Part shown: piece after piece, positions 38,366-47,187 of the stretch
Layout of the letters: the number at the start of each line of letters is the position of its first letter
Position numbering within the stretch: position 1 is the stretch's first letter
Assembly (NCBI GenBank): GCA_965223705.1
Contig: OZ245015.1
Coordinates: 896,001 to 960,000 of the forward strand
Length of the DNA: 64,000 nucleotides
From: Myxococcota bacterium
GTDB lineage: Bacteria > Myxococcota_A > UBA9160 > UBA6930
Reading direction: 5' to 3'
Position numbers and translations under genes: made by a program
The notes under the pieces: model-generated
Database searches by the model: none
What the model saw: the letters and a program-made list of their open reading frames with translations, nothing else
Told to the model about the DNA's origin: nothing

Positions 38366-38884
38366 ATGACCTGGGTAGAGCTCGGCGGACTTGGAGAATT
38401 TCTGGGAGCGATGGGCGTCATTGTGACGCTTGTCTACTTGTCGATCCAAGTGCGGCAGAACACGCGCGCGATGGACGACGGCCGCCGTTTGGCTTTGGCG
38501 CAGACGTATCAGATGCGCGCCGATGGTTTGCAGAGCATGCTGGTGCAGGCGGCCGATTCACAGCACATCGCTCCCATCATCGAGCGGCTGACGGGGCTGG
38601 GGTATCCAGAGGACGTAGCGGCGCTCGAGCAGCTTTCCTCCGATGAGCGCAGTCGGTTCCGGTTGTGGCAAATCGCCCAACAAACCCATTGGGACAACAT
38701 GCTCTACCAGTATCAGCAGGGCTTTCTCGATCCCGAGTACTACGAGGACGCGTTCAAGGTTCGCGTGCGACGTCTGGCTCCGACGTGGGACGCGTTGGGG
38801 CTCATCGGAGGACGCAGCAGTTTCGACCGCGCCCTCCGCGAGATCATGTGCGAGGAATCGCCTGCGCCTACAAGTTCGGGATGA
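38366..38884 (+). CDS. Membrane-anchored hypothetical protein (GEFLGA...LVYLSIQVRQN family)
   Basis: RBS GGAGG; N-terminus shared with 56399-56875. Confidence 0.7.
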   Translation: MTWVELGGLGEFLGAMGVIVTLVYLSIQVRQNTRAMDDGRRLALAQTYQMRADGLQSMLVQAADSQHIAPIIERLTGLGYPEDVAALEQLSSDERSRFRLWQIAQQTHWDNMLYQYQQGFLDPEYYEDAFKVRVRRLAPTWDALGLIGGRSSFDRALREIMCEESPAPTSSG

Positions 38885-39881
38885 CTTTTTCGCCGAACAT
38901 CCGGATGTCGGCCAGCACCTGCTGATGCGGTGGGCCGCCGGGTTGTTGCAGGCGTACCATGAGTGAGTCGGGTTGAATGGCTTCCTGCCACATTCGGAGC
39001 TGATCCATGCACTCGTCCGGCGAGCCGACGATCAACCGGTCTTTGGCCGCCACGTCAAACGTCAAGTCGGCCGTGCACGTAACATCCTTCAGGTGCTCGT
39101 CCATGACGTAGGCGCCGCCCTCGTAGTAGTAGTGGTGGGTCACCATCGTCGGCCCGCTCTTCGCTTCGGCATCGGCCCGGGAATCGCCGATGATGCAATC
39201 CCGCATCAGGCAGATATAGGGCTTGCGGCCGGCTTTCTTCGCGAGCTCTCGGTACTCGTCCGCTTCCTGCTTGATGACGGAGAGGGACTGCACCGGGTCG
39301 GCGATCCAGCCGTCGGCCATGCGGGCTGCGCGCGCGATACCGGGCGGGCTCCAGGCGGCGAGCCAGATCGGAGGGCCACCGGCTTGGGCCGGTCGCGGCG
39401 TGACGCGCACGTTCTCGATCGTGTGGTACTTGCTCGGATAGCTGAAAGGCTCGCCGGTCCACGCCTGGCGCATGATCTCGACGCCTTCTTCGCTTCGCCG
39501 CGCGCGCTGTTTTGCGGAGACGCCCACGGCGTCGAAGTCCGGGCCCTGGTAACCGATCCCCGCCCCGACGATCATGCGACCGCCTGTCGCCTGGTCGACC
39601 ACCGCGATGTCTTCGGCCAGGCGAATCGGGTGATAGAGCGGCTGCAACAACACGCAAGTACCGACCTTGAGGGTCTGCGTGCGAGCGCCGACCAGGCCGG
39701 CCAAAAGCACCGGGTTCGGCAGGTAGCCATCCTCTTGTTGGTGGTGCTCGGTAAAGAAAAAGCCCTCGAAGCCCACCTGCTCGCACAACTCGGCTTGCTC
39801 GAAGATCTCTTGAATCACACGGCCGATGTTGTCGCCGTTCGGCGGATCTTGTGTGCACGGGAAGTAGTTGACGGGCAGCAT
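38868..39881 (-). CDS. LLM class flavin-dependent oxidoreductase
   Basis: TEHHQ, HPIRLAED and VTPRP; QDPPNG N-terminus shared with 16661-17695. Confidence 0.9.
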   Translation of the reverse strand: MLPVNYFPCTQDPPNGDNIGRVIQEIFEQAELCEQVGFEGFFFTEHHQQEDGYLPNPVLLAGLVGARTQTLKVGTCVLLQPLYHPIRLAEDIAVVDQATGGRMIVGAGIGYQGPDFDAVGVSAKQRARRSEEGVEIMRQAWTGEPFSYPSKYHTIENVRVTPRPAQAGGPPIWLAAWSPPGIARAARMADGWIADPVQSLSVIKQEADEYRELAKKAGRKPYICLMRDCIIGDSRADAEAKSGPTMVTHHYYYEGGAYVMDEHLKDVTCTADLTFDVAAKDRLIVGSPDECMDQLRMWQEAIQPDSLMVRLQQPGGPPHQQVLADIRMFGEKVIPNL

Positions 39882-39957
39882 GGGATTCTCCTCCTTGGAA
39901 AGAGCGAGCGCTTAGCTTATACCGGAGGTGCCGCTTTAGCCCGAGAAAGGACCCGCT

Positions 39958-40554
39958 ATGGACGTGATCGAAGCGATGGAGACCTGCATCGCCATGCGAT
40001 ATTTGAAGCGAGACCCGGTTCCCGAGGCCGACCTCGAGCGCCTGGTCTACGCCGCCACTCGGGCTTCGAGCCCCGGGAACAGCCAGGGGTGGGAGTTCGT
40101 CATTCTCACCGACCCCGCCAAGAAGAAAGCGATCGGGCCGATCGTCTCCGAAGGCATCGGCCCGCTCGTCGCCGGTGCCGCCGAATTAGGCGACACCATC
40201 GAGGGCCGCATGTATCGCGGAGCGGCTCACTTGGCAAACAACTTCGAAAACGTCCCGGCCTGGATCATCGGCTGCGCGCGAAAGATCTATCCGCCCGACG
40301 ATCCCTCCGAGGCTTTCATGTACTCGACGATCTACCCCGCCGCGCAGAACCTCATCGTCGCGGCTCGTTCGATGGGCCTCGGCACTACGTTCACGACGTT
40401 CCAGATGGTCGCCGAGGACGCGTTCCGAAAGGAGCTCAACATCCCGGACGACGTGTTCCTGTGCTTTAGCGCCGCGGTGGGCTACCCGGAACGTCCGTTC
40501 GCCCCCGTCCGGAGAAAACCGGTGTCGGAGGTGCTGCACTGGAATGGCTTCTGA
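39958..40554 (+). CDS. Nitroreductase family protein
   Basis: ASSPGNSQGWEF, AQNLIVAARSMGLGT and VGYP motifs. Confidence 0.9.
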   Translation: MDVIEAMETCIAMRYLKRDPVPEADLERLVYAATRASSPGNSQGWEFVILTDPAKKKAIGPIVSEGIGPLVAGAAELGDTIEGRMYRGAAHLANNFENVPAWIIGCARKIYPPDDPSEAFMYSTIYPAAQNLIVAARSMGLGTTFTTFQMVAEDAFRKELNIPDDVFLCFSAAVGYPERPFAPVRRKPVSEVLHWNGF

Positions 40555-40639
40555 GCGGAGGTGATCCCAGCGGCCGCGTGACGCGACTCCTCCTCAAGCC
40601 CGCGATGAAGAATGAACAGCGGGTACGAGGAGCGCAACG

Positions 40640-40966
40640 ATGTCGCGCGCAACGTCCGAGAACCGCCGTCCCATCGACGCTCAGTATGGAGACCTCTCCC
40701 TCCAGTGGTCGGAACTCGATTCCGGTGTTCATCTCACCCTCGAAGGGCGCGCCGGGGTTGAAGAAGCGACAGCCGTCGAGTTCGCGATGACCGTTGCCGC
40801 GGCGCGGCGCCCGAAGCGACTCGTGATCGACGCCGACGGGCTCGTCTCCCTCTGTGCACTCGCAGCGGGCCACTTGAACCGCGGCCGCCGCTCGCTCGAG
40901 CGAGCCGGCACCGAGACGCGAATCGTGGCCGATCGCGAAGGGGTCGGCAGCTACCTCGCCGTCTGA
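40640..40966 (+). CDS. STAS-like (anti-sigma antagonist-like) protein, degenerate
   Basis: About 108 aa; LTLEGR...LVIDADGLVSL pattern; the canonical DSSG phospho-site is absent. Confidence 0.5.
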   Translation: MSRATSENRRPIDAQYGDLSLQWSELDSGVHLTLEGRAGVEEATAVEFAMTVAAARRPKRLVIDADGLVSLCALAAGHLNRGRRSLERAGTETRIVADREGVGSYLAV

Positions 40967-40973
40967 GCGCCGC

Positions 40974-41684
40974 TCAGTCCGCGGTGCGCACCGGGCACGG
41001 CGCGGGTTCGTCGCAGAGGTCTGTGAGTTGGTGCTCGAGCACCCGGACCCACCGCTCGAGGCTGTCCGGGTCGAATTTGCCCGACGTTTCGCGATCGAAC
41101 GTGTTGTGGCGCTCCTGCGCGTGTTGCAGTGTGAGTTCGTACGCGCGCACCACGAGCTCCGGACCCGAATGCCGGGCCGCTAGTTTCGCGATGGTCCGCG
41201 AGAGCTGGCGCGACGCGACTTCCATAATCGCAAAGTGAATTTGTTCGTGTTGGAGGACGTACCAGTCGGGCTGCTTCACCGGTACGACGGCGGGCAGACC
41301 GGAGAGTACGCTCGCTAGGGCGACGGCTTTGCCGACCGGTCCCCCCACGCGGTTCCAAAAAGAACACTCACGCCGCAGGGTCGCGCGGAACGTCCCGGGC
41401 TCGTCGCGCGGCACGATCATCGTGCACACTTCGGCAGCGTGGGCGAAGTTGCCCCACAGGCTGTGCGACGTCTTGGCTTTGAAATCTTCCTTCGTGAGGA
41501 GGCGATACGGCACGGTTCCGCTGCGCCATTCCGGCGGGATCGGGAACTCAGGCATCTGGATGGTGGGTGCCGCTGCAGGCATCTGGATGGTGGGTGCCGC
41601 CGGCGCCTCTTCCTCGGTGGCTGAAACGACGGTGACGGTGAGAAGGAGTACGGCGGCGATCGAAGCGAAGGTGCGGAGCATCAT
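40974..41684 (-). CDS. Exported putative Zn-metalloprotease (DUF922-like)
   Basis: Signal peptide, LQHEQIHF HExxH motif, FDRET. Confidence 0.65.
   Translation of the reverse strand: MMLRTFASIAAVLLLTVTVVSATEEEAPAAPTIQMPAAAPTIQMPEFPIPPEWRSGTVPYRLLTKEDFKAKTSHSLWGNFAHAAEVCTMIVPRDEPGTFRATLRRECSFWNRVGGPVGKAVALASVLSGLPAVVPVKQPDWYVLQHEQIHFAIMEVASRQLSRTIAKLAARHSGPELVVRAYELTLQHAQERHNTFDRETSGKFDPDSLERWVRVLEHQLTDLCDEPAPCPVRTAD
41551..41600. repeat. In-frame tandem duplication (23-bp identity, 27-bp period)
   Basis: GGCATCTGGATGGTGGGTGCCGC at 41551 and 41578, encoding AAPTIQMP twice. Confidence 0.9.
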
Positions 41685-41804
41685 GGTGCGACCTCGAAAC
41701 ACCCCCTTCGCACCTACAAAATATCACATCGAGGGGTATCGCTTCGTGTGCGAATCTTGGGGAATGGTTCCGCTGCCGCAAAAGTTGCATCACTCAGGCG
41801 TCGC

Positions 41805-43040
41805 ATGAAATACGCCCGCCGCGGCCGGAAGATCGTGATCGCGATGGTCGGCTTGCCCGCCCGGGGCAAGACCTTCACGGCGCGAAAGCTCGTGGGCTAC
41901 TTGAGCTGGCTCGGTTACCCGACCCGATCCTTCAACGTCGGAGAAGCTCGGCGAACGAAGCTCGGACCGGGCCAATCTTCGGACTTCTTCGACCCGCAAA
42001 ACGTCGCCGGCGAGGTGCAACGGCGGGCGCTGGCCGAATCCGTTCTCGCCGACGCGTTCGACTGGTTGCGTTCGGAGGGACGCATCGCGATCTACGACGC
42101 GACCAACAGTACGCGCGAGCGGCGTGACTGGATCGCAGGGCGCTGTCGAGAAGAAGATCGCGACCTGCTCTTTGTCGAGATCTCCACGAAAGAAGAGCTC
42201 GTCGAAGACACGATCCGCGAGACGAAGATCACGTCTCCCGACTACGAGGGGCGGACCGAAGAGGAGGCCCTGGCGGATTTCCGGGAGCGCATCGCGCACT
42301 ACGAGGGCGCGTACGAACCGCTCGAGCCGGACGAAGGCGCGTGGGTGCGACTCGTCGATCGCGGGCGACAGATTGTCATCAACCGGGTGCACGGATGGAT
42401 CTTCGGAAGAATCTTGTCGTTCCTCGGGAACTTCCAAGTCGCGGCGCGCCCGGTTTGGTTGACGCGTCACGGCGAGAGTCAATTCAACCGCGAAGATCGC
42501 GTCGGTGGCGATTCCGAGCTTTCTCCGCGCGGCCAAGCGTACGCGACGGAGCTTGCCCGCCACGTGCGCAGAGCGTTTCGACCCGACGACGACTTGGACG
42601 TCTGGACCAGCACGCTCGCCCGCACGGTGCAGACCGCGGAGCCGCTCGAGGCGGATATCGGAAGGTGGCGCGCACTCGACGAGATCAACGCCGGGGTTTG
42701 CGATGGGCTGACCTACGCGGAAATTGACGAGCGCTACCCGGACGTCGCGTCGGGACGAAGCCGCGACAAGTTCGAGTTTCGCTACCCGGGTGGCGAGAGC
42801 TATGCCGACGTCGTGAGCCGTGTCGATCGCGTCATCATCGAGCTCGAGCGCTACCAGACGCCCGTCCTCGTCATTGCGCACCGTGCGGTTCTGCGGGCGC
42901 TCTACGCGTACTTCATGCAGCTCTCGCCTCGGGAGGCGCCGCACATCGATATGCCGCTCCATACCGTCATCAAGCTGACGCCGACGGCGTACGGTTGTCT
43001 GGAGGAGCGCGTCGAGCTCCCTCCGAAGATCGAGCGCTAG
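41805..43040 (+). CDS. Bifunctional 6-phosphofructo-2-kinase/fructose-2,6-bisphosphatase (PFKFB type)
   Basis: MVGLPARGKT, FNVGEARR, DATNSTRERR, SPDY, RHGES, LDEINAGVCDGLTY, RYPGGESY and PLHTVIKLTP. Confidence 0.93.
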   Translation: MKYARRGRKIVIAMVGLPARGKTFTARKLVGYLSWLGYPTRSFNVGEARRTKLGPGQSSDFFDPQNVAGEVQRRALAESVLADAFDWLRSEGRIAIYDATNSTRERRDWIAGRCREEDRDLLFVEISTKEELVEDTIRETKITSPDYEGRTEEEALADFRERIAHYEGAYEPLEPDEGAWVRLVDRGRQIVINRVHGWIFGRILSFLGNFQVAARPVWLTRHGESQFNREDRVGGDSELSPRGQAYATELARHVRRAFRPDDDLDVWTSTLARTVQTAEPLEADIGRWRALDEINAGVCDGLTYAEIDERYPDVASGRSRDKFEFRYPGGESYADVVSRVDRVIIELERYQTPVLVIAHRAVLRALYAYFMQLSPREAPHIDMPLHTVIKLTPTAYGCLEERVELPPKIER

Positions 43041-43043
43041 CGC

Positions 43044-44027
43044 GTGCGCGCCTTGCTCTCCGGAGCGCATCGGTGGCGCGTCCGACAGACTGCGCCTCTC
43101 CGGGTCCTGTGGTCCAAGGGCGTGGCGCGGTTCTGCGACGTTGCGGGGGGCGAGGGTTATTGGGCGCAACCGACCGAGGCTGTCGCGTCGCCCGAGTACG
43201 TGGAGCGACACTTCGCCGACGCCGAAGGGCTGGTCTGGTTGCGCCTCGGAACCCAGTCGCGAACCGGTCGCCCCTGCGATGTCGATCGTTTCGTCGCGCG
43301 AGTGCTGCCGAACATCGAGCACCCCTTCGCTCTGTTGACGACCGACGGCGATACCTCCGTGCCCGGCGACCTGCCGCCTCGGACCGTCGAGGCGCTGCTA
43401 GAGAACCCGCGAATGATCGCTTGGCGCACGCAAAACTACGACGGCTATCGCCATCCGAAGCTCGGTCCGTTCCCGATCGGCCTCGATCTGCACACGTTTC
43501 GAGGTTGGCGCGGGCCCTCGGGTTGGGTGCGGGCGCTCAATCGGATCTGCGCCGCACGGACGCCGCTCGAGCATGCTCCGCCGCGAGTCTTCTGCGATTT
43601 CAAGGCCACCTGGCGCTCGTCCGAGCGCGCGCGGGTCATCGATGTGCTCGACGGTTGCTCGCACGTCGATTTCCAGACCGAGCGTCTCGGGCAAATTGCG
43701 ATCTGGCGACGCTACGCCGCCTATCCGTTTGTCGTGAGCACCCACGGCAACGGACTCGATTGTCACCGCACGTGGGAGACGCTCTACCTCGGGTCGATCG
43801 TGATTACGAAGACCTCGAGTCTCGATCCGCTCTTCGAGGGGCTACCGGTCGCCGTAGTCGAGCGATGGGAGGAGGTTCGCGATCCGGCGAATCTCGCCCG
43901 CTGGAAGCGAGAGCTCGCTCCGCTCGCCGAGGCCGCGCGTGTCCGCGAACGGCTCGATCCGGCGCGTTTGGTGGGCGAGTTGCGCGCGCTTCTGGGACCT
44001 TCCGGGGATTCCCAACCTCACCTGTGA
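43044..44027 (+). CDS. Exostosin/GT47-like glycosyltransferase-related protein
   Basis: PIGLD and FVVSTHGNGLDCHRTWETLYLGSIVI...LPV motifs. Confidence 0.6.
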   Translation: MRALLSGAHRWRVRQTAPLRVLWSKGVARFCDVAGGEGYWAQPTEAVASPEYVERHFADAEGLVWLRLGTQSRTGRPCDVDRFVARVLPNIEHPFALLTTDGDTSVPGDLPPRTVEALLENPRMIAWRTQNYDGYRHPKLGPFPIGLDLHTFRGWRGPSGWVRALNRICAARTPLEHAPPRVFCDFKATWRSSERARVIDVLDGCSHVDFQTERLGQIAIWRRYAAYPFVVSTHGNGLDCHRTWETLYLGSIVITKTSSLDPLFEGLPVAVVERWEEVRDPANLARWKRELAPLAEAARVRERLDPARLVGELRALLGPSGDSQPHL

Positions 44028-44136
44028 GGGTAACCCTCCGTTTGCGGCGACGTTCCACAGGTGTCGCGTTCCACGCTTCCAATGCTGGGCTGCGAAACGT
44101 TACGATCTCGGTCGGGTCCGAACCCGTGGAGGACGA

Positions 44137-44502
44137 ATGGCGGTGACCGATTCCTCGCAAACCTTGCCCACGGGATTCCAGCACTTAGAGTGCTGGGTCG
44201 CCGACTGGGTTCTTCCGGACACCCAAGCGCGAAGCGACCATCGACTCGCGAGTTCAATGGAAGCGATCCAAAGCTTCTACGACGCGATGCTTCCCGAGGC
44301 GCCGCGCATCTTGGAACTGCTCGCGAAAAGCAAACTCGGTGAACTCGATAGGCCCGAGGAGCGTCTGCTCGCCTTGATGCTCTCGTTCGCCGAAGTGACG
44401 CCTGCGGTCGAGTTCTACAAGCAGCCCGCGGTCGTCGACGGTTTCTCTTCGGACAAGTTTCTAGCGAATGAAATTCTCTCCGATCTAAACCCGCAGTCAT
44501 AG
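44137..44502 (+). CDS. Small conserved protein upstream of the Rieske oxygenase
   Basis: RBS GGAGG; SSMEAIQSFYDAM and AEVTPAVEFY. Confidence 0.7.
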   Translation: MAVTDSSQTLPTGFQHLECWVADWVLPDTQARSDHRLASSMEAIQSFYDAMLPEAPRILELLAKSKLGELDRPEERLLALMLSFAEVTPAVEFYKQPAVVDGFSSDKFLANEILSDLNPQS

Positions 44503-44520
44503 CGGACAAGGAGGCTTCCA

Positions 44521-45768
44521 ATGGCTTTTGCGAGCGAAGGGCGATTGACCTCGGCTTTCCCGAACCTAGGCACGGATCCGGTGCCTACCGATATTTACTG
44601 GAAGCCCGAGTGGTACGAGAAAGAGCTCGAAGCGATTTTCTCGCGAACCTGGCTCGCCGTGGCGAGTGGTCACGAAATCCCGTGCCCGGGCGACTTCGTC
44701 GTGAAACACATCCCGACGTTCGGCTACAAGGTCATCATCGTGCGCGGGCGCGATGGCAAAGCCCGGGCTTTTCACAACGTCTGCAGCCACCGGGGAAGCC
44801 ACGTCGAGCTTCGCGAACGAGGCAACTGCAAGGTCTTTTCGTGTCCATTCCACGGCTGGGCTTTCGATCACGAGGGCAAACTCGTCAGCGTGCCCGCCGG
44901 AAAGGATTTTTTCGATCTCGATCGACATGAGAAGGGGCTGGCGCAGATCCACGCCGACGAGTGGGCGCACCACATCTTTATCAACTTTGCCGATGAACCC
45001 GAGGAAAGTCTCGAAACCTATCTTGGAGAATTCGGCCGCGATCTCGTCGACTGGCCCGGCTGGGAACGCTGCAGCGTTTCGTGGGAGTTCAAAGCCGAAG
45101 TCGAGGTCAATTGGAAAGTGCTCCTCGACGCGTTCAACGAGATCTATCACATCCCGACGATTCACGGACGTTCGATCGCGCCGATGTTCGTGACGGAGGA
45201 CAACCCGACTGGCGAGGTGATCGGTGTGACACGCAAGGGCCCGCACCGAACCCTCTCTCTCTACGGGAATCACGCCTACCAACCCACGCCGGGCCAGGCA
45301 CTGGGCTATGGCGCGGCGCCCGGCCAACCGGTTACGAAAGCGGGCCCCGCCGACGAGAAGGATCGATTGCCGAAGGGTATCAATGAAGGTCGCCACGAAG
45401 CATGGGGTGTCGACGTGCCGACCGTCTTCCCGAACTGGGTGCCCATCGTGACTTCCGACTCTTGGTTTTCGCACCAGATTTGGCCGAAGGCGGTGAACCG
45501 ATCCGAATGGCGCATGCGTATCTACATGCCGCCCGCGGAGAACGCGGCCGAACGCTACGGCCAGGAGTACGCCAGTGTCGAGCTGCGCGATACCGTCATG
45601 GAAGACGCGAACACGTTCGAGCGCGTTCAGGATTCCCTCGACAAAGGGCTGCTTTCGCACTTCGTGTTCCGCGACCACGAAGTGTCCTGCCGGATGCAGT
45701 ACCACATTGTCAAAGAGTGGGTGGAGGCGTACGAAAAACGCCAGGCCGCCGGGGCCGCGCACGTCTAG
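44521..45768 (+). CDS. Rieske aromatic ring-hydroxylating oxygenase alpha subunit
   Basis: CSHRG...CPFHGW Rieske site; EIYHIPTIH and EDA mononuclear iron ligands. Confidence 0.93.
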   Translation: MAFASEGRLTSAFPNLGTDPVPTDIYWKPEWYEKELEAIFSRTWLAVASGHEIPCPGDFVVKHIPTFGYKVIIVRGRDGKARAFHNVCSHRGSHVELRERGNCKVFSCPFHGWAFDHEGKLVSVPAGKDFFDLDRHEKGLAQIHADEWAHHIFINFADEPEESLETYLGEFGRDLVDWPGWERCSVSWEFKAEVEVNWKVLLDAFNEIYHIPTIHGRSIAPMFVTEDNPTGEVIGVTRKGPHRTLSLYGNHAYQPTPGQALGYGAAPGQPVTKAGPADEKDRLPKGINEGRHEAWGVDVPTVFPNWVPIVTSDSWFSHQIWPKAVNRSEWRMRIYMPPAENAAERYGQEYASVELRDTVMEDANTFERVQDSLDKGLLSHFVFRDHEVSCRMQYHIVKEWVEAYEKRQAAGAAHV

Positions 45769-45783
45769 CGCTACACTCGGTCC

Positions 45784-46092
45784 GTGCCGCCCGAACCCGT
45801 TCTCGAAGTCGCCATCCTCGACGTGCGCGGTGGTCCCACCGACGCGTTCGAAGCGGCCTTCGCGGAAGCGCAGCACATCATCGCAGCGACCTCTGGCTAT
45901 CAGCGCCACGAGCTGCGCCGCTGTGTCGAGGCCGAAGACCGGTACCTGCTTCTCGTCTGGTGGGATTCGCTCGAGAGTCACACCGAAGGCTTTCGCGGCT
46001 CCGAAGCGTATGGGCGCTGGCGCGAGCTGCTGCACCATTTTTACGAGCCGTTCCCAACCGTCGAGCACTATGTCGCGGTCAACGGACCGTAG
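45784..46092 (+). CDS. Antibiotic biosynthesis monooxygenase (ABM) family protein
   Basis: YLLLVWWDSLESHTEGFRGS...LLHHFYEPFPTVEHY. Confidence 0.88.
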   Translation: MPPEPVLEVAILDVRGGPTDAFEAAFAEAQHIIAATSGYQRHELRRCVEAEDRYLLLVWWDSLESHTEGFRGSEAYGRWRELLHHFYEPFPTVEHYVAVNGP

Positions 46093-46103
46093 AGAGGAGC
46101 CCG

Positions 46104-46505
46104 ATGTATAAACTCCATAAACCCGTCTCGCAATTAGTCGAAGAAGCGCGACTCGAGATCGCGAACCACTCCGCGGAGGAAGCGAAACGCCGCGTCGATG
46201 AAGAGGGCGCGCTGCTCGTCGATGTTCGAGATATCCGAGAGCTCGACCGCGAGGGGAAGATTCCCGGCGCGTTCCATGCGCCGCGGGGGATGCTCGAGTT
46301 TTGGATCGATCCCGATTCGCCGTATTTCAAAGAAGTGTTCGCCGCCGACCGCGAGTTCATCTTTTTCTGAGCGGGTGGCGGACGGACAAGTTTGTCCGTG
46401 AAGATGCTTCAAGACATGGGAATGCCTCGCGTATCGCACATCGTCACGGGTTTCGGCGGCTGGCGCGAAGCCGGTTTTCCAGTCGAGGGCGGCAAGTCGT
46501 CGTGA
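46104..46505 (+). CDS. Rhodanese-like selenoprotein (Sec at the active-site position)
   Basis: LVDVRD, GKIPGAFHAPRGMLEF, FIFF-UGA(46368-46370)-AGGGRTS...GFGGWREAGFPVE; RBS GAGGAG. Confidence 0.9.
46382..46399 (+). promoter_or_regulatory. Putative bacterial SECIS element
   Basis: Perfect inverted repeat ACGGACAA-GT-TTGTCCGT separated from the in-frame UGA by 11 nt. Confidence 0.75.
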
Positions 46506-46560
46506 GCGGGCGCGCCGAGGGAGTCTTGCACTGCAACTCGTGCGGTAGCAAGATGGCCCC

Positions 46561-47187
46561 ATGCCCACTTTACTCTACATCGAAGCTTCCCCTCGAAAGG
46601 AGCGTTCGCACTCGATTCGAGTCGCCGACGCCTTTCTCGACAAATACGCCGCTGCGAATCCGTCGGACACGATCGATCGGCTCGACTTGTGGTCGGCCGA
46701 CCTCCCGCGCTTTGATGGAGCCGCGCTGGACGCGAAGTACGCGATCATGCACGGGGAATCCCCGACCGAAGAGCAGCAGAGCGCTTGGGGGACGATCGAG
46801 CGCGAGTTCCGCCGCTTTGGCGATGCCGACAAATTCGTTTTCAGCGTCCCGATGTGGAACTTCGGTGTTCCCTACGTTCTGAAGCACTACATCGACGTCA
46901 TCACGCAGCCGGGCATGGCGTGGAGCGTTTCCCCTGACGGAAGCTACCAGGGTCTCGTTCAGGGCAGCGCCGTCGTGATCTACGCCAGCGGCGCCGCCTA
47001 TCACGACGGCAGCGGCTTCGAGGCCTTTGATCTGCAGAAACCCACCGTGGAGAATTGGCTCGCGTTCATCGGTATCACCGAGGTGCAGCGGATCGTGCTC
47101 GCCGGTTCTTTGGGTGATCCCGACGCCACGCGGGCGGCTGAGGCGGCTGCGGTCGCAGAAGCGGAGAAACTCGCGGCGCGCTTCTAG
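46561..47187 (+). CDS. azoR: FMN-dependent NADH-azoreductase
   Basis: EASPRKERSHS and PMWNFGVPYVLKHYID motifs. Confidence 0.88.
   Translation: MPTLLYIEASPRKERSHSIRVADAFLDKYAAANPSDTIDRLDLWSADLPRFDGAALDAKYAIMHGESPTEEQQSAWGTIEREFRRFGDADKFVFSVPMWNFGVPYVLKHYIDVITQPGMAWSVSPDGSYQGLVQGSAVVIYASGAAYHDGSGFEAFDLQKPTVENWLAFIGITEVQRIVLAGSLGDPDATRAAEAAAVAEAEKLAARF

Follow-up and report, generated by a model that had tools for sequence, protein, structure and literature searches.

The window, a 64,000 nt stretch of a Myxococcota genome, carries at 41805-43040 an open reading frame (ORF) that begins with ATG, ends with TAG and predicts a protein of 411 aa, designated P0001. An upstream GTG (41748) would extend the product to 430 aa; the consensus of 54 homologs begins at the Met of 41805. 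As in the PFKFB enzymes, an N-terminal 6PF2K kinase domain is fused to a C-terminal branch-1 histidine phosphatase domain (Table 1). The top 12 matches in a PDB search were animal PFKFB1-4, the best being human PFKFB3 (E 3.8e-110, query residues 10-405), and no NCBIfam model scored above its cut-off with P0001. The aligned core leaves approximately 9 residues before it and 6 after it, and the regulatory or carbohydrate-binding terminal extensions are absent. The initial annotation had assigned the gene to the PFK-2/FBPase-2 family from its catalytic motifs and had remarked on the lack of terminal regulatory extensions. The core limits agree with the second statement, and the Pfam matches to 6PF2K and His_Phos_1, the PDB match and the fold of the structural model uphold the first. 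Every motif quoted is present in the translation, namely the P-loop (aa 16-23), DATN (98-101), SPDY (144-147), RHGES (221-225), EINAGVC (293-299) and IAH (357-359). The sequence at 41805-43040 is therefore confirmed as an intact, tail-less member of a known family.

Table 1. Features at the PFK-2/FBPase-2 locus (positions in the window)
Feature	Position	Strand	Evidence
PFK-2/FBPase-2 gene	41805..43040	+	ORF, PDB match, Pfam, AlphaFold model, structure comparison
6PF2K kinase domain, aa 7-212	41823..42440	+	Pfam PF01591, 204.9 bits (cut-off 27)
P-loop, aa 16-23	41850..41873	+	G16, P18, R20, G21 and K22 invariant in 207/207 bacterial homologs
Histidine phosphatase (FBPase-2) domain, aa 217-398	42453..42998	+	Pfam PF00300 His_Phos_1, 138 bits (cut-off 21.7)
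RHG motif, aa 221-223, with His222	42465..42473	+	PDB alignment and conservation
Glu293	42681..42683	+	PDB alignment; invariant in 207/207
His359 (invariant), then Arg360	42879..42884	+	Conservation; Gln at 360 in 57/94 eukaryotic rows
Divergent upstream ORF	40974..41702	-	Weak DUF922 match below cut-off; occupies the position of the PPi-type PFK gene in relatives
Downstream ORF, 327 aa, 3 bases past the PFK-2 stop	43044..44027	+	Atlas RXYLT1_C / GT47 clusters

The downstream ORF has no Pfam or NCBIfam match and is absent from the shared neighbours of relatives' loci. Of the members of its neighbouring Atlas clusters, a minority or at best a bare majority have RXYLT1_C or Exostosin GT47, a lead towards a glycosyltransferase-like product, and the ORF is probably not part of the PFK-2 system. 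No sigma-70 promoter match was found between 41500 and 44300, and terminators there were at chance level only. Within the divergent ORF, a short near-perfect repeat at 41531-41605 duplicates a nine-residue stretch after a signal-like N-terminus.

Conservation was assessed in 207 distinct bacterial rows, comprising the collected loci and best homologs, which were picked by likeness to the query and whose bacterial origin was not verified row by row, and in 94 eukaryote-type rows. Of 39 active-site positions examined, 25 are invariant in 207/207 bacterial rows and a further 7 are conserved in 199-206 of them. Invariant positions include K22, R49, R50, D98, K141, R162 and Y166 of the kinase, and R221, H222, N228, R273, E293, R318, Y333, H359 and R364 of the phosphatase. 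With R73, T100 and R106, the former make up the kinase residues aligned to PFKFB3, and Y304 and K322 are also present in the phosphatase pocket. The roles given to these residues are assumed to be those described for the human and rat liver enzymes. R49, R50, R73, T100, R106, K141, R162 and Y166 are taken to correspond to the basic, Tyr and Thr residues that bind Fru-6-P in animal enzymes, and by homology His222 is presumably the phospho-acceptor and Glu293 the acid catalyst. The eukaryote-type rows are more variable, as the phosphatase His (kept in 74/94) is missing from several paralogs. A phosphohistidine at the RHG motif is described in the available text of PMC9721465.

Some positions depart from the animal enzymes or vary among the bacterial rows. 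Arg360 stands in place of Gln in 113/207 bacterial rows, and Arg is also found there in 13/94 eukaryotic rows and in 15/20 rows of a second bacterial clade (see below). Thr128 lies where Cys is kept in 88/94 eukaryotic rows, and position 106, Arg in P0001, is Gln in 34/207 bacterial rows. The invariant Arg273 corresponds to Ser in PFKFB3, a residue to which the weak phosphatase activity of that enzyme is attributed. As P0001 has Arg rather than Ser, both activities would be expected. The AlphaFold model, built from a 54-row alignment, has a mean pLDDT of 89.7 and superposes on human PFKFB2 (5htk_B) with TM 0.96 and rmsd 1.8, and its phosphatase domain on the rat liver FBPase-2 domain (1tip/1fbt) with TM 0.96 and rmsd 1.2. 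The modelled fold is thus that of PFKFB over both domains.

The gene appears native to this genome, a 4.56 Mb assembly of 2 contigs with 95% completeness and 0.6% contamination, where it lies on the 4.54-Mb contig. Against 2001 long genome ORFs chosen with a simple filter, its GC3 (0.805) falls at the 74th percentile and its CAI (0.72) at the 87th. Neighbouring genes are ordinary bacterial ones by Pfam, including an alkaline phosphatase, a luciferase-like monooxygenase, a nitroreductase and a Rieske oxygenase. Assembly contigs of two samples from one study run unbroken from approximately 38,570 to 47,000, with flat depth and no joints; the window may itself derive from one of these, so that contiguity is demonstrated rather than independent occurrence. 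Contamination by eukaryotic DNA, misassembly into a chimera or a recent import now in decay might be proposed, given that the nearest eukaryotic proteins are approximately 48-50% identical. The codon usage, the contigs of both samples and the tree, in which the closest relatives come from the same bacterial family, refute this explanation, and together with the large contig and the bacterial neighbours they reduce its probability to a negligible level. The initial annotation had judged the gene not compositionally foreign and long resident, which the percentiles bear out, and had named chimerism with eukaryotic DNA as a finding that would overturn its reading; none was seen. It had also regarded bacterial homologs as sporadic, and this view does not hold for the genomes sampled here.

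PF01591 was detected in 81/401 genomes of the phylum, as one copy each and in 52/254 genera, and in 20/33 genomes of the window's family; it was found in 0/14 control genomes, E. coli among them. A second sample, of 201 genomes centred on a member of Binatia, contained 22 carriers; 2 have the type found here and 20 that of the second clade, which is 32-39% identical to P0001, has named relatives in Desulfobulbaceae and keeps the same catalytic core in 20/20 loci. The best 119 homologs (query excluded) are 56-77% identical and, where named, belong to Myxococcota, Deltaproteobacteria and unclassified bacterial MAGs; NCBI names some of them 6-phosphofructo-2-kinase/fructose-2,6-bisphosphatase. 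A search of genome contigs with the single protein gave no relative among 385 candidate stretches, and an alignment query found 93, of which 80 were kept. Named loci among the 80 are mostly from Myxococcota, including Polyangiaceae, with some from Binatia, Methylomirabilota and others. The bacterial branch is large and apparently unassayed. Three records labelled Nitrosotalea, Limnocylindria and Verrucomicrobiia (L052, L070, L080) encode proteins tightly nested among Methylomirabilota sequences, and are either mislabelled or mis-binned or reflect recent transfer between soil bacteria. One protein of 1069 aa (P0137) consists of two full PFK-2/FBPase-2 units in tandem. Frames of 600-750 aa in relatives were considered as N-terminal fusions and rejected as shadow frames over the divergent PFK or other neighbours.

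In phylogenies, the Myxococcota-type proteins fall on one side of a branch with a FastTree support of 99 (100/194 rows) and an IQ-TREE SH-aLRT of 77 (32/81 rows), or 80 for 23/24 rows once the second clade was added. Sampled members of each of three families (f1, f21 and f35) stay together, as would be expected from long vertical inheritance with frequent loss. Eukaryotic rows were the best 150 of 2921 representative matches, 95 of them with enough coverage; names were sought for 30 representatives, about half of which yielded one. In two trees, proteins of Phytophthora, Cafeteria and Cantina are among the closest eukaryotic rows, with weak support. The second clade forms a long branch near animal and fungal rows, apart from the Myxococcota type in the free tree. 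Path lengths average 1.26 among bacterial rows and 1.97 among eukaryotic ones. The MAD root falls among eukaryotic paralogs, with the bacterial branch at rank 65 of 159, and fast, degenerate paralogs can produce such a root; rooting with 16 distant histidine phosphatases left the base unresolved, with a long-branch warning. Of the two origins offered in the initial annotation, a deep bacterial branch and a transfer from eukaryotes to bacteria, an old transfer, possibly twice, is somewhat favoured, as the free trees and the MAD root lean this way. A tree with all 39 bacterial rows forced together was not rejected (p-AU 0.241). It is quite unlikely that the enzyme was an old deltaproteobacterial invention, later received by eukaryotes, with a circuit in Myxococcota and Desulfobacterota in which Fru-2,6-P2 activates a PPi-type PFK while inhibiting class I FBPase.

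In 14 of the 20 carriers of the window's family, the PFK-2 gene and a gene for a PPi-type PFK lie head-to-head, less than 300 bp apart by coordinates. All carriers in two genera are paired (g4, 6/6; g2, 8/8), and no pair was seen in g1, g5, g7 or g9. The same pair occurs in one genome of another family (G256, f11), and because its PFK-2 branches just outside those of the window's family the pairing is old. The 15 paired loci probably represent one ancestral event rather than 15, and a single ancient pairing, later broken in some lineages, is the simplest account. One of these lineages is that of the present genome, where PFK-2 lies at 0.94 Mb and PFK at 2.25 Mb, unpaired as in 5 other carriers of the family; the paired PFKs of relatives are 60-71% identical to its only PFK. 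An assembly gap may account for the lack of a linked pair in G632 (80% complete). No PFK pairing was seen in more distant loci, the 30 from the phylum spanning just 1.5 kb or so upstream. In the second clade, PFK is immediately upstream in 1/20 loci and class I FBPase within 4 kb in 2/20 (probably one event), a weak association. Labels assigned by eye place a glutathione S-transferase-like ORF and an MFS-like transporter downstream in approximately 9 loci of genus g2 (L020:8254-10250 and related), and a 3-dehydroquinate synthase-like ORF before and a MazG-like ORF after the gene in several loci of the second clade (L158, L159, L161, L173).

A single PFK-family enzyme, of the PPi type, is encoded in the genome, as is one class I FBPase, which scores above its NCBIfam cut-off; GlpX was not found. 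The nearest PDB entry to the PFK (C1:2251843-2253078) is 9dqm (E 4e-100), identified in the available text of bioRxiv 10.64898/2026.03.28.715000 as a Trichomonas PPi-PFK, and the AMP-contact residues given there for the interface of that enzyme are partly kept. The PFK scores 519 bits with NF041103, below the cut-off of 550, and 124 bits with TIGR02477. It carries the Asp and Lys that we take to mark PPi use. Comparison of 23 PFKs from PFK-2 carriers with 27 from non-carriers revealed no signature residue common to the former. Of the PfkB-family matches, the two best do not look like ATP-PFKs, one being nucleoside/ribokinase-like and the other HldE-like; a third match is weak. In 4/13 family sequences, all from genus g2 (L003, L005, L008, L009), the paired PFK has Gly for Asp at the phosphate-donor position. 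Gly at this position presumably indicates use of ATP rather than PPi, suggesting that these g2 enzymes may have switched from PPi to ATP while the pairing with PFK-2 stayed.

The class I FBPase (C1:4216791-4217750) best matches E. coli 2gq1 in the PDB (E 5.5e-85). Its substrate-site Asn, Tyr, Arg and Lys are kept, likewise in non-carriers, and the AMP-site positions look degenerate in the family. The family FBPases (L242-L267) group on a long stem, separately from the 22 other FBPases sampled, and their profile scores 378 bits with human FBPase 1 and 353 bits with the E. coli enzyme. A six-residue N-terminal motif is present in 21/26 family genomes, including 19/19 carriers examined. It was lost on 3 branches, each without PFK and PFK-2, and persists in two genomes where PFK-2 was not found (G009 and G632). 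In a profile alignment this stretch matches pig FBPase from residue 9, a segment that we assume to be part of allosteric control. Loss of the motif would fit loss of regulation once the opposing kinase had gone, whichever effector was involved. Outside the family, no convergent FBPase signature was found between 10 carriers and 10 non-carriers.

Both PFK and class I FBPase are present in 20 of the 33 family genomes, and 19 of these have PFK-2, the exception being G009 (89% complete). One or both are missing from the other 13, where PFK-2 was detected once (G631, 83% complete). Independent-pair tests within the family yielded 4 pairs (p 0.125-0.5), too few for significance. Over the 401 genomes of the phylum, class I FBPase is present in 73/81 PFK-2 carriers versus 138/320 non-carriers (Fisher p 2e-15, an overstatement because kin share traits), leaving 8/81 carriers without a detectable one. 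Seven families mostly lacking it (f7, f9, f11, f13, f19, f28 and f32) include 3 PFK-2 carriers in 121 genomes. Two others have it in 11/12 (f24) and 23/23 (f26) genomes and PFK-2 in 0/12 and 0/23. Class I FBPase is thus close to necessary for the presence of PFK-2, and insufficient. A PFK of any type is present in 389/401 genomes and 80/81 carriers, and the PPi type found here does not track PFK-2 across the phylum (19/81 carriers versus 98/320 non-carriers, p 0.22).

From the fold, the residues, their conservation, the pairing and the co-occurrence we infer that P0001 has both activities, that cells contain Fru-2,6-P2 and which enzymes it targets. The kinase domain would convert Fru-6-P and ATP to Fru-2,6-P2, and the phosphatase domain would remove it via phospho-His222, the balance of the two setting a pool of Fru-2,6-P2 that reports Fru-6-P. 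As terminal tails are absent, this balance is probably set by metabolites and not by tail phosphorylation. Fru-2,6-P2 would act at the step between Fru-6-P and Fru-1,6-P2, where a PPi-type PFK and a class I FBPase running together would burn PPi in a futile cycle. The enzyme probably makes and removes Fru-2,6-P2 to damp this cycle, most likely through inhibition of FBPase. Fru-2,6-P2 inhibits the pig, plant and E. coli FBPases at the substrate site, and the chance that it does so here is placed at about even. That it also activates the PFK, in analogy to the plant cytosol, is rather doubtful, given that no signature residue was found in the PFKs of carriers and that characterised bacterial PPi-PFKs are described as non-allosteric (PMC12203962). 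The pairing with PFK suggests that these bacteria may use Fru-2,6-P2 to steer sugar breakdown against synthesis, and together with the tracking of class I FBPase it raises the odds of a eukaryote-like function and lends indirect support to the possible Fru-2,6-P2 signalling proposed in the initial annotation. A working bacterial Fru-2,6-P2 circuit, whatever its origin, is considered slightly more probable than its absence.

The same fold might instead act on another ketose phosphate, such as sedoheptulose-7-phosphate, or serve as a repair kinase/phosphatase. The exchanges at positions 360, 128 and 106 would be compatible with a changed substrate, as would a partner PFK whose nearest solved relatives are Trichomonas-type PPi-PFKs, a clade distinct from the plant enzyme that Fru-2,6-P2 activates. 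However, the eight predicted Fru-6-P-holding residues are kept and Arg at 360 recurs in eukaryotic and second-clade rows, so that a different substrate is judged unlikely.

It is quite unlikely that the enzyme makes Fru-2,6-P2 for a different main sensor, either pyruvate kinase, as in trypanosomatids, or a transcription regulator. The genome does encode one pyruvate kinase, some carriers lack a detectable class I FBPase, and the paired PFKs have no signature. Nevertheless, the pairing partner is PFK, neither pyruvate kinase nor a regulator; the 25 upstream regions inspected by eye showed no common DNA motif, and within the family the presence of PFK-2 follows possession of both PFK and class I FBPase. 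Finally, the phosphatase alone might matter, clearing Fru-2,6-P2 that enters the cell from eukaryotic prey or detritus and would inhibit FBPase. Many Myxococcota are predators, and the near-dependence on class I FBPase would agree with this role, but it would not keep the kinase residues, which are as invariant as those of the phosphatase, and Fru-2,6-P2 is charged and labile, making the proposal very unlikely. Production and removal of Fru-2,6-P2 at the PFK/FBPase step is the reading retained.

The available text of PMC9721465, citing Rider 2004, states that Fru-2,6-P2 is absent from bacteria except Desulfovibrio desulfuricans, and in that of PMC12873801 the regulation of PFK by F26BP appears eukaryote-specific. 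No assay of a bacterial PFK-2/FBPase-2, including those of Myxococcota and Desulfovibrio, was found in the literature covered, most subscription journals lying outside the search. The Desulfovibrio claim reportedly rests on a gene homolog, and this protein is assumed here to belong to the Desulfobacterota-type clade. The family annotation by NCBI and the Desulfovibrio exception were thus already known, and the surprise is limited because the gene family is already annotated; added here are the head-to-head PFK pairing and the way in which PFK-2 follows class I FBPase across genomes. A conserved single-copy family in approximately one fifth of the sampled phylum genomes makes the rule that Fru-2,6-P2 is confined to eukaryotes directly testable, with three recombinant proteins, all from one genome.

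Among known systems, the Desulfobacterota type (Desulfobulbus propionicus DSM 2032, Desulfogranum marinum) is likewise tail-less, at approximately 400-415 aa, with the same core, and several members are named 6-phosphofructo-2-kinase/fructose-2,6-bisphosphatase by NCBI. It differs in its low identity to P0001, its long separate branch and the lack of equivalents of Thr387 and Tyr396. Animal PFKFB1-4 (2axn, 6ibz, 5htk, 1bif, 1k6m) share with P0001 the domain order, the catalytic residues of both domains and the fold (TM 0.89-0.96), at 42-46% identity. P0001 differs from them in its lack of tails, in Arg for the PFKFB3 Ser, and in Arg360 and Thr128 for Gln and Cys, and this genome, with its single PFK, lacks the eukaryote-type double-length ATP-PFK. 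The class I FBPase of E. coli, the best PDB match of the FBPase found here, is inhibited by Fru-2,6-P2 in vitro, and E. coli has no PFK-2. The plant cytosolic circuit of F2KP, PPi-PFK and cytosolic FBPase comprises the same three enzyme types that occur together in this genome, whereas the PPi-PFK of this genome belongs to the Trichomonas/Thermotogales type and not to the long TIGR02477 type, and the carbohydrate-binding N-terminal extension is absent. In its available text, the review PMC12203962 describes plant PPi-PFKs as activated by Fru-2,6-P2 and all characterised bacterial PPi-PFKs as non-allosteric; on that account, a bacterial PPi-PFK activated by Fru-2,6-P2, if true, would be the first allosteric one.
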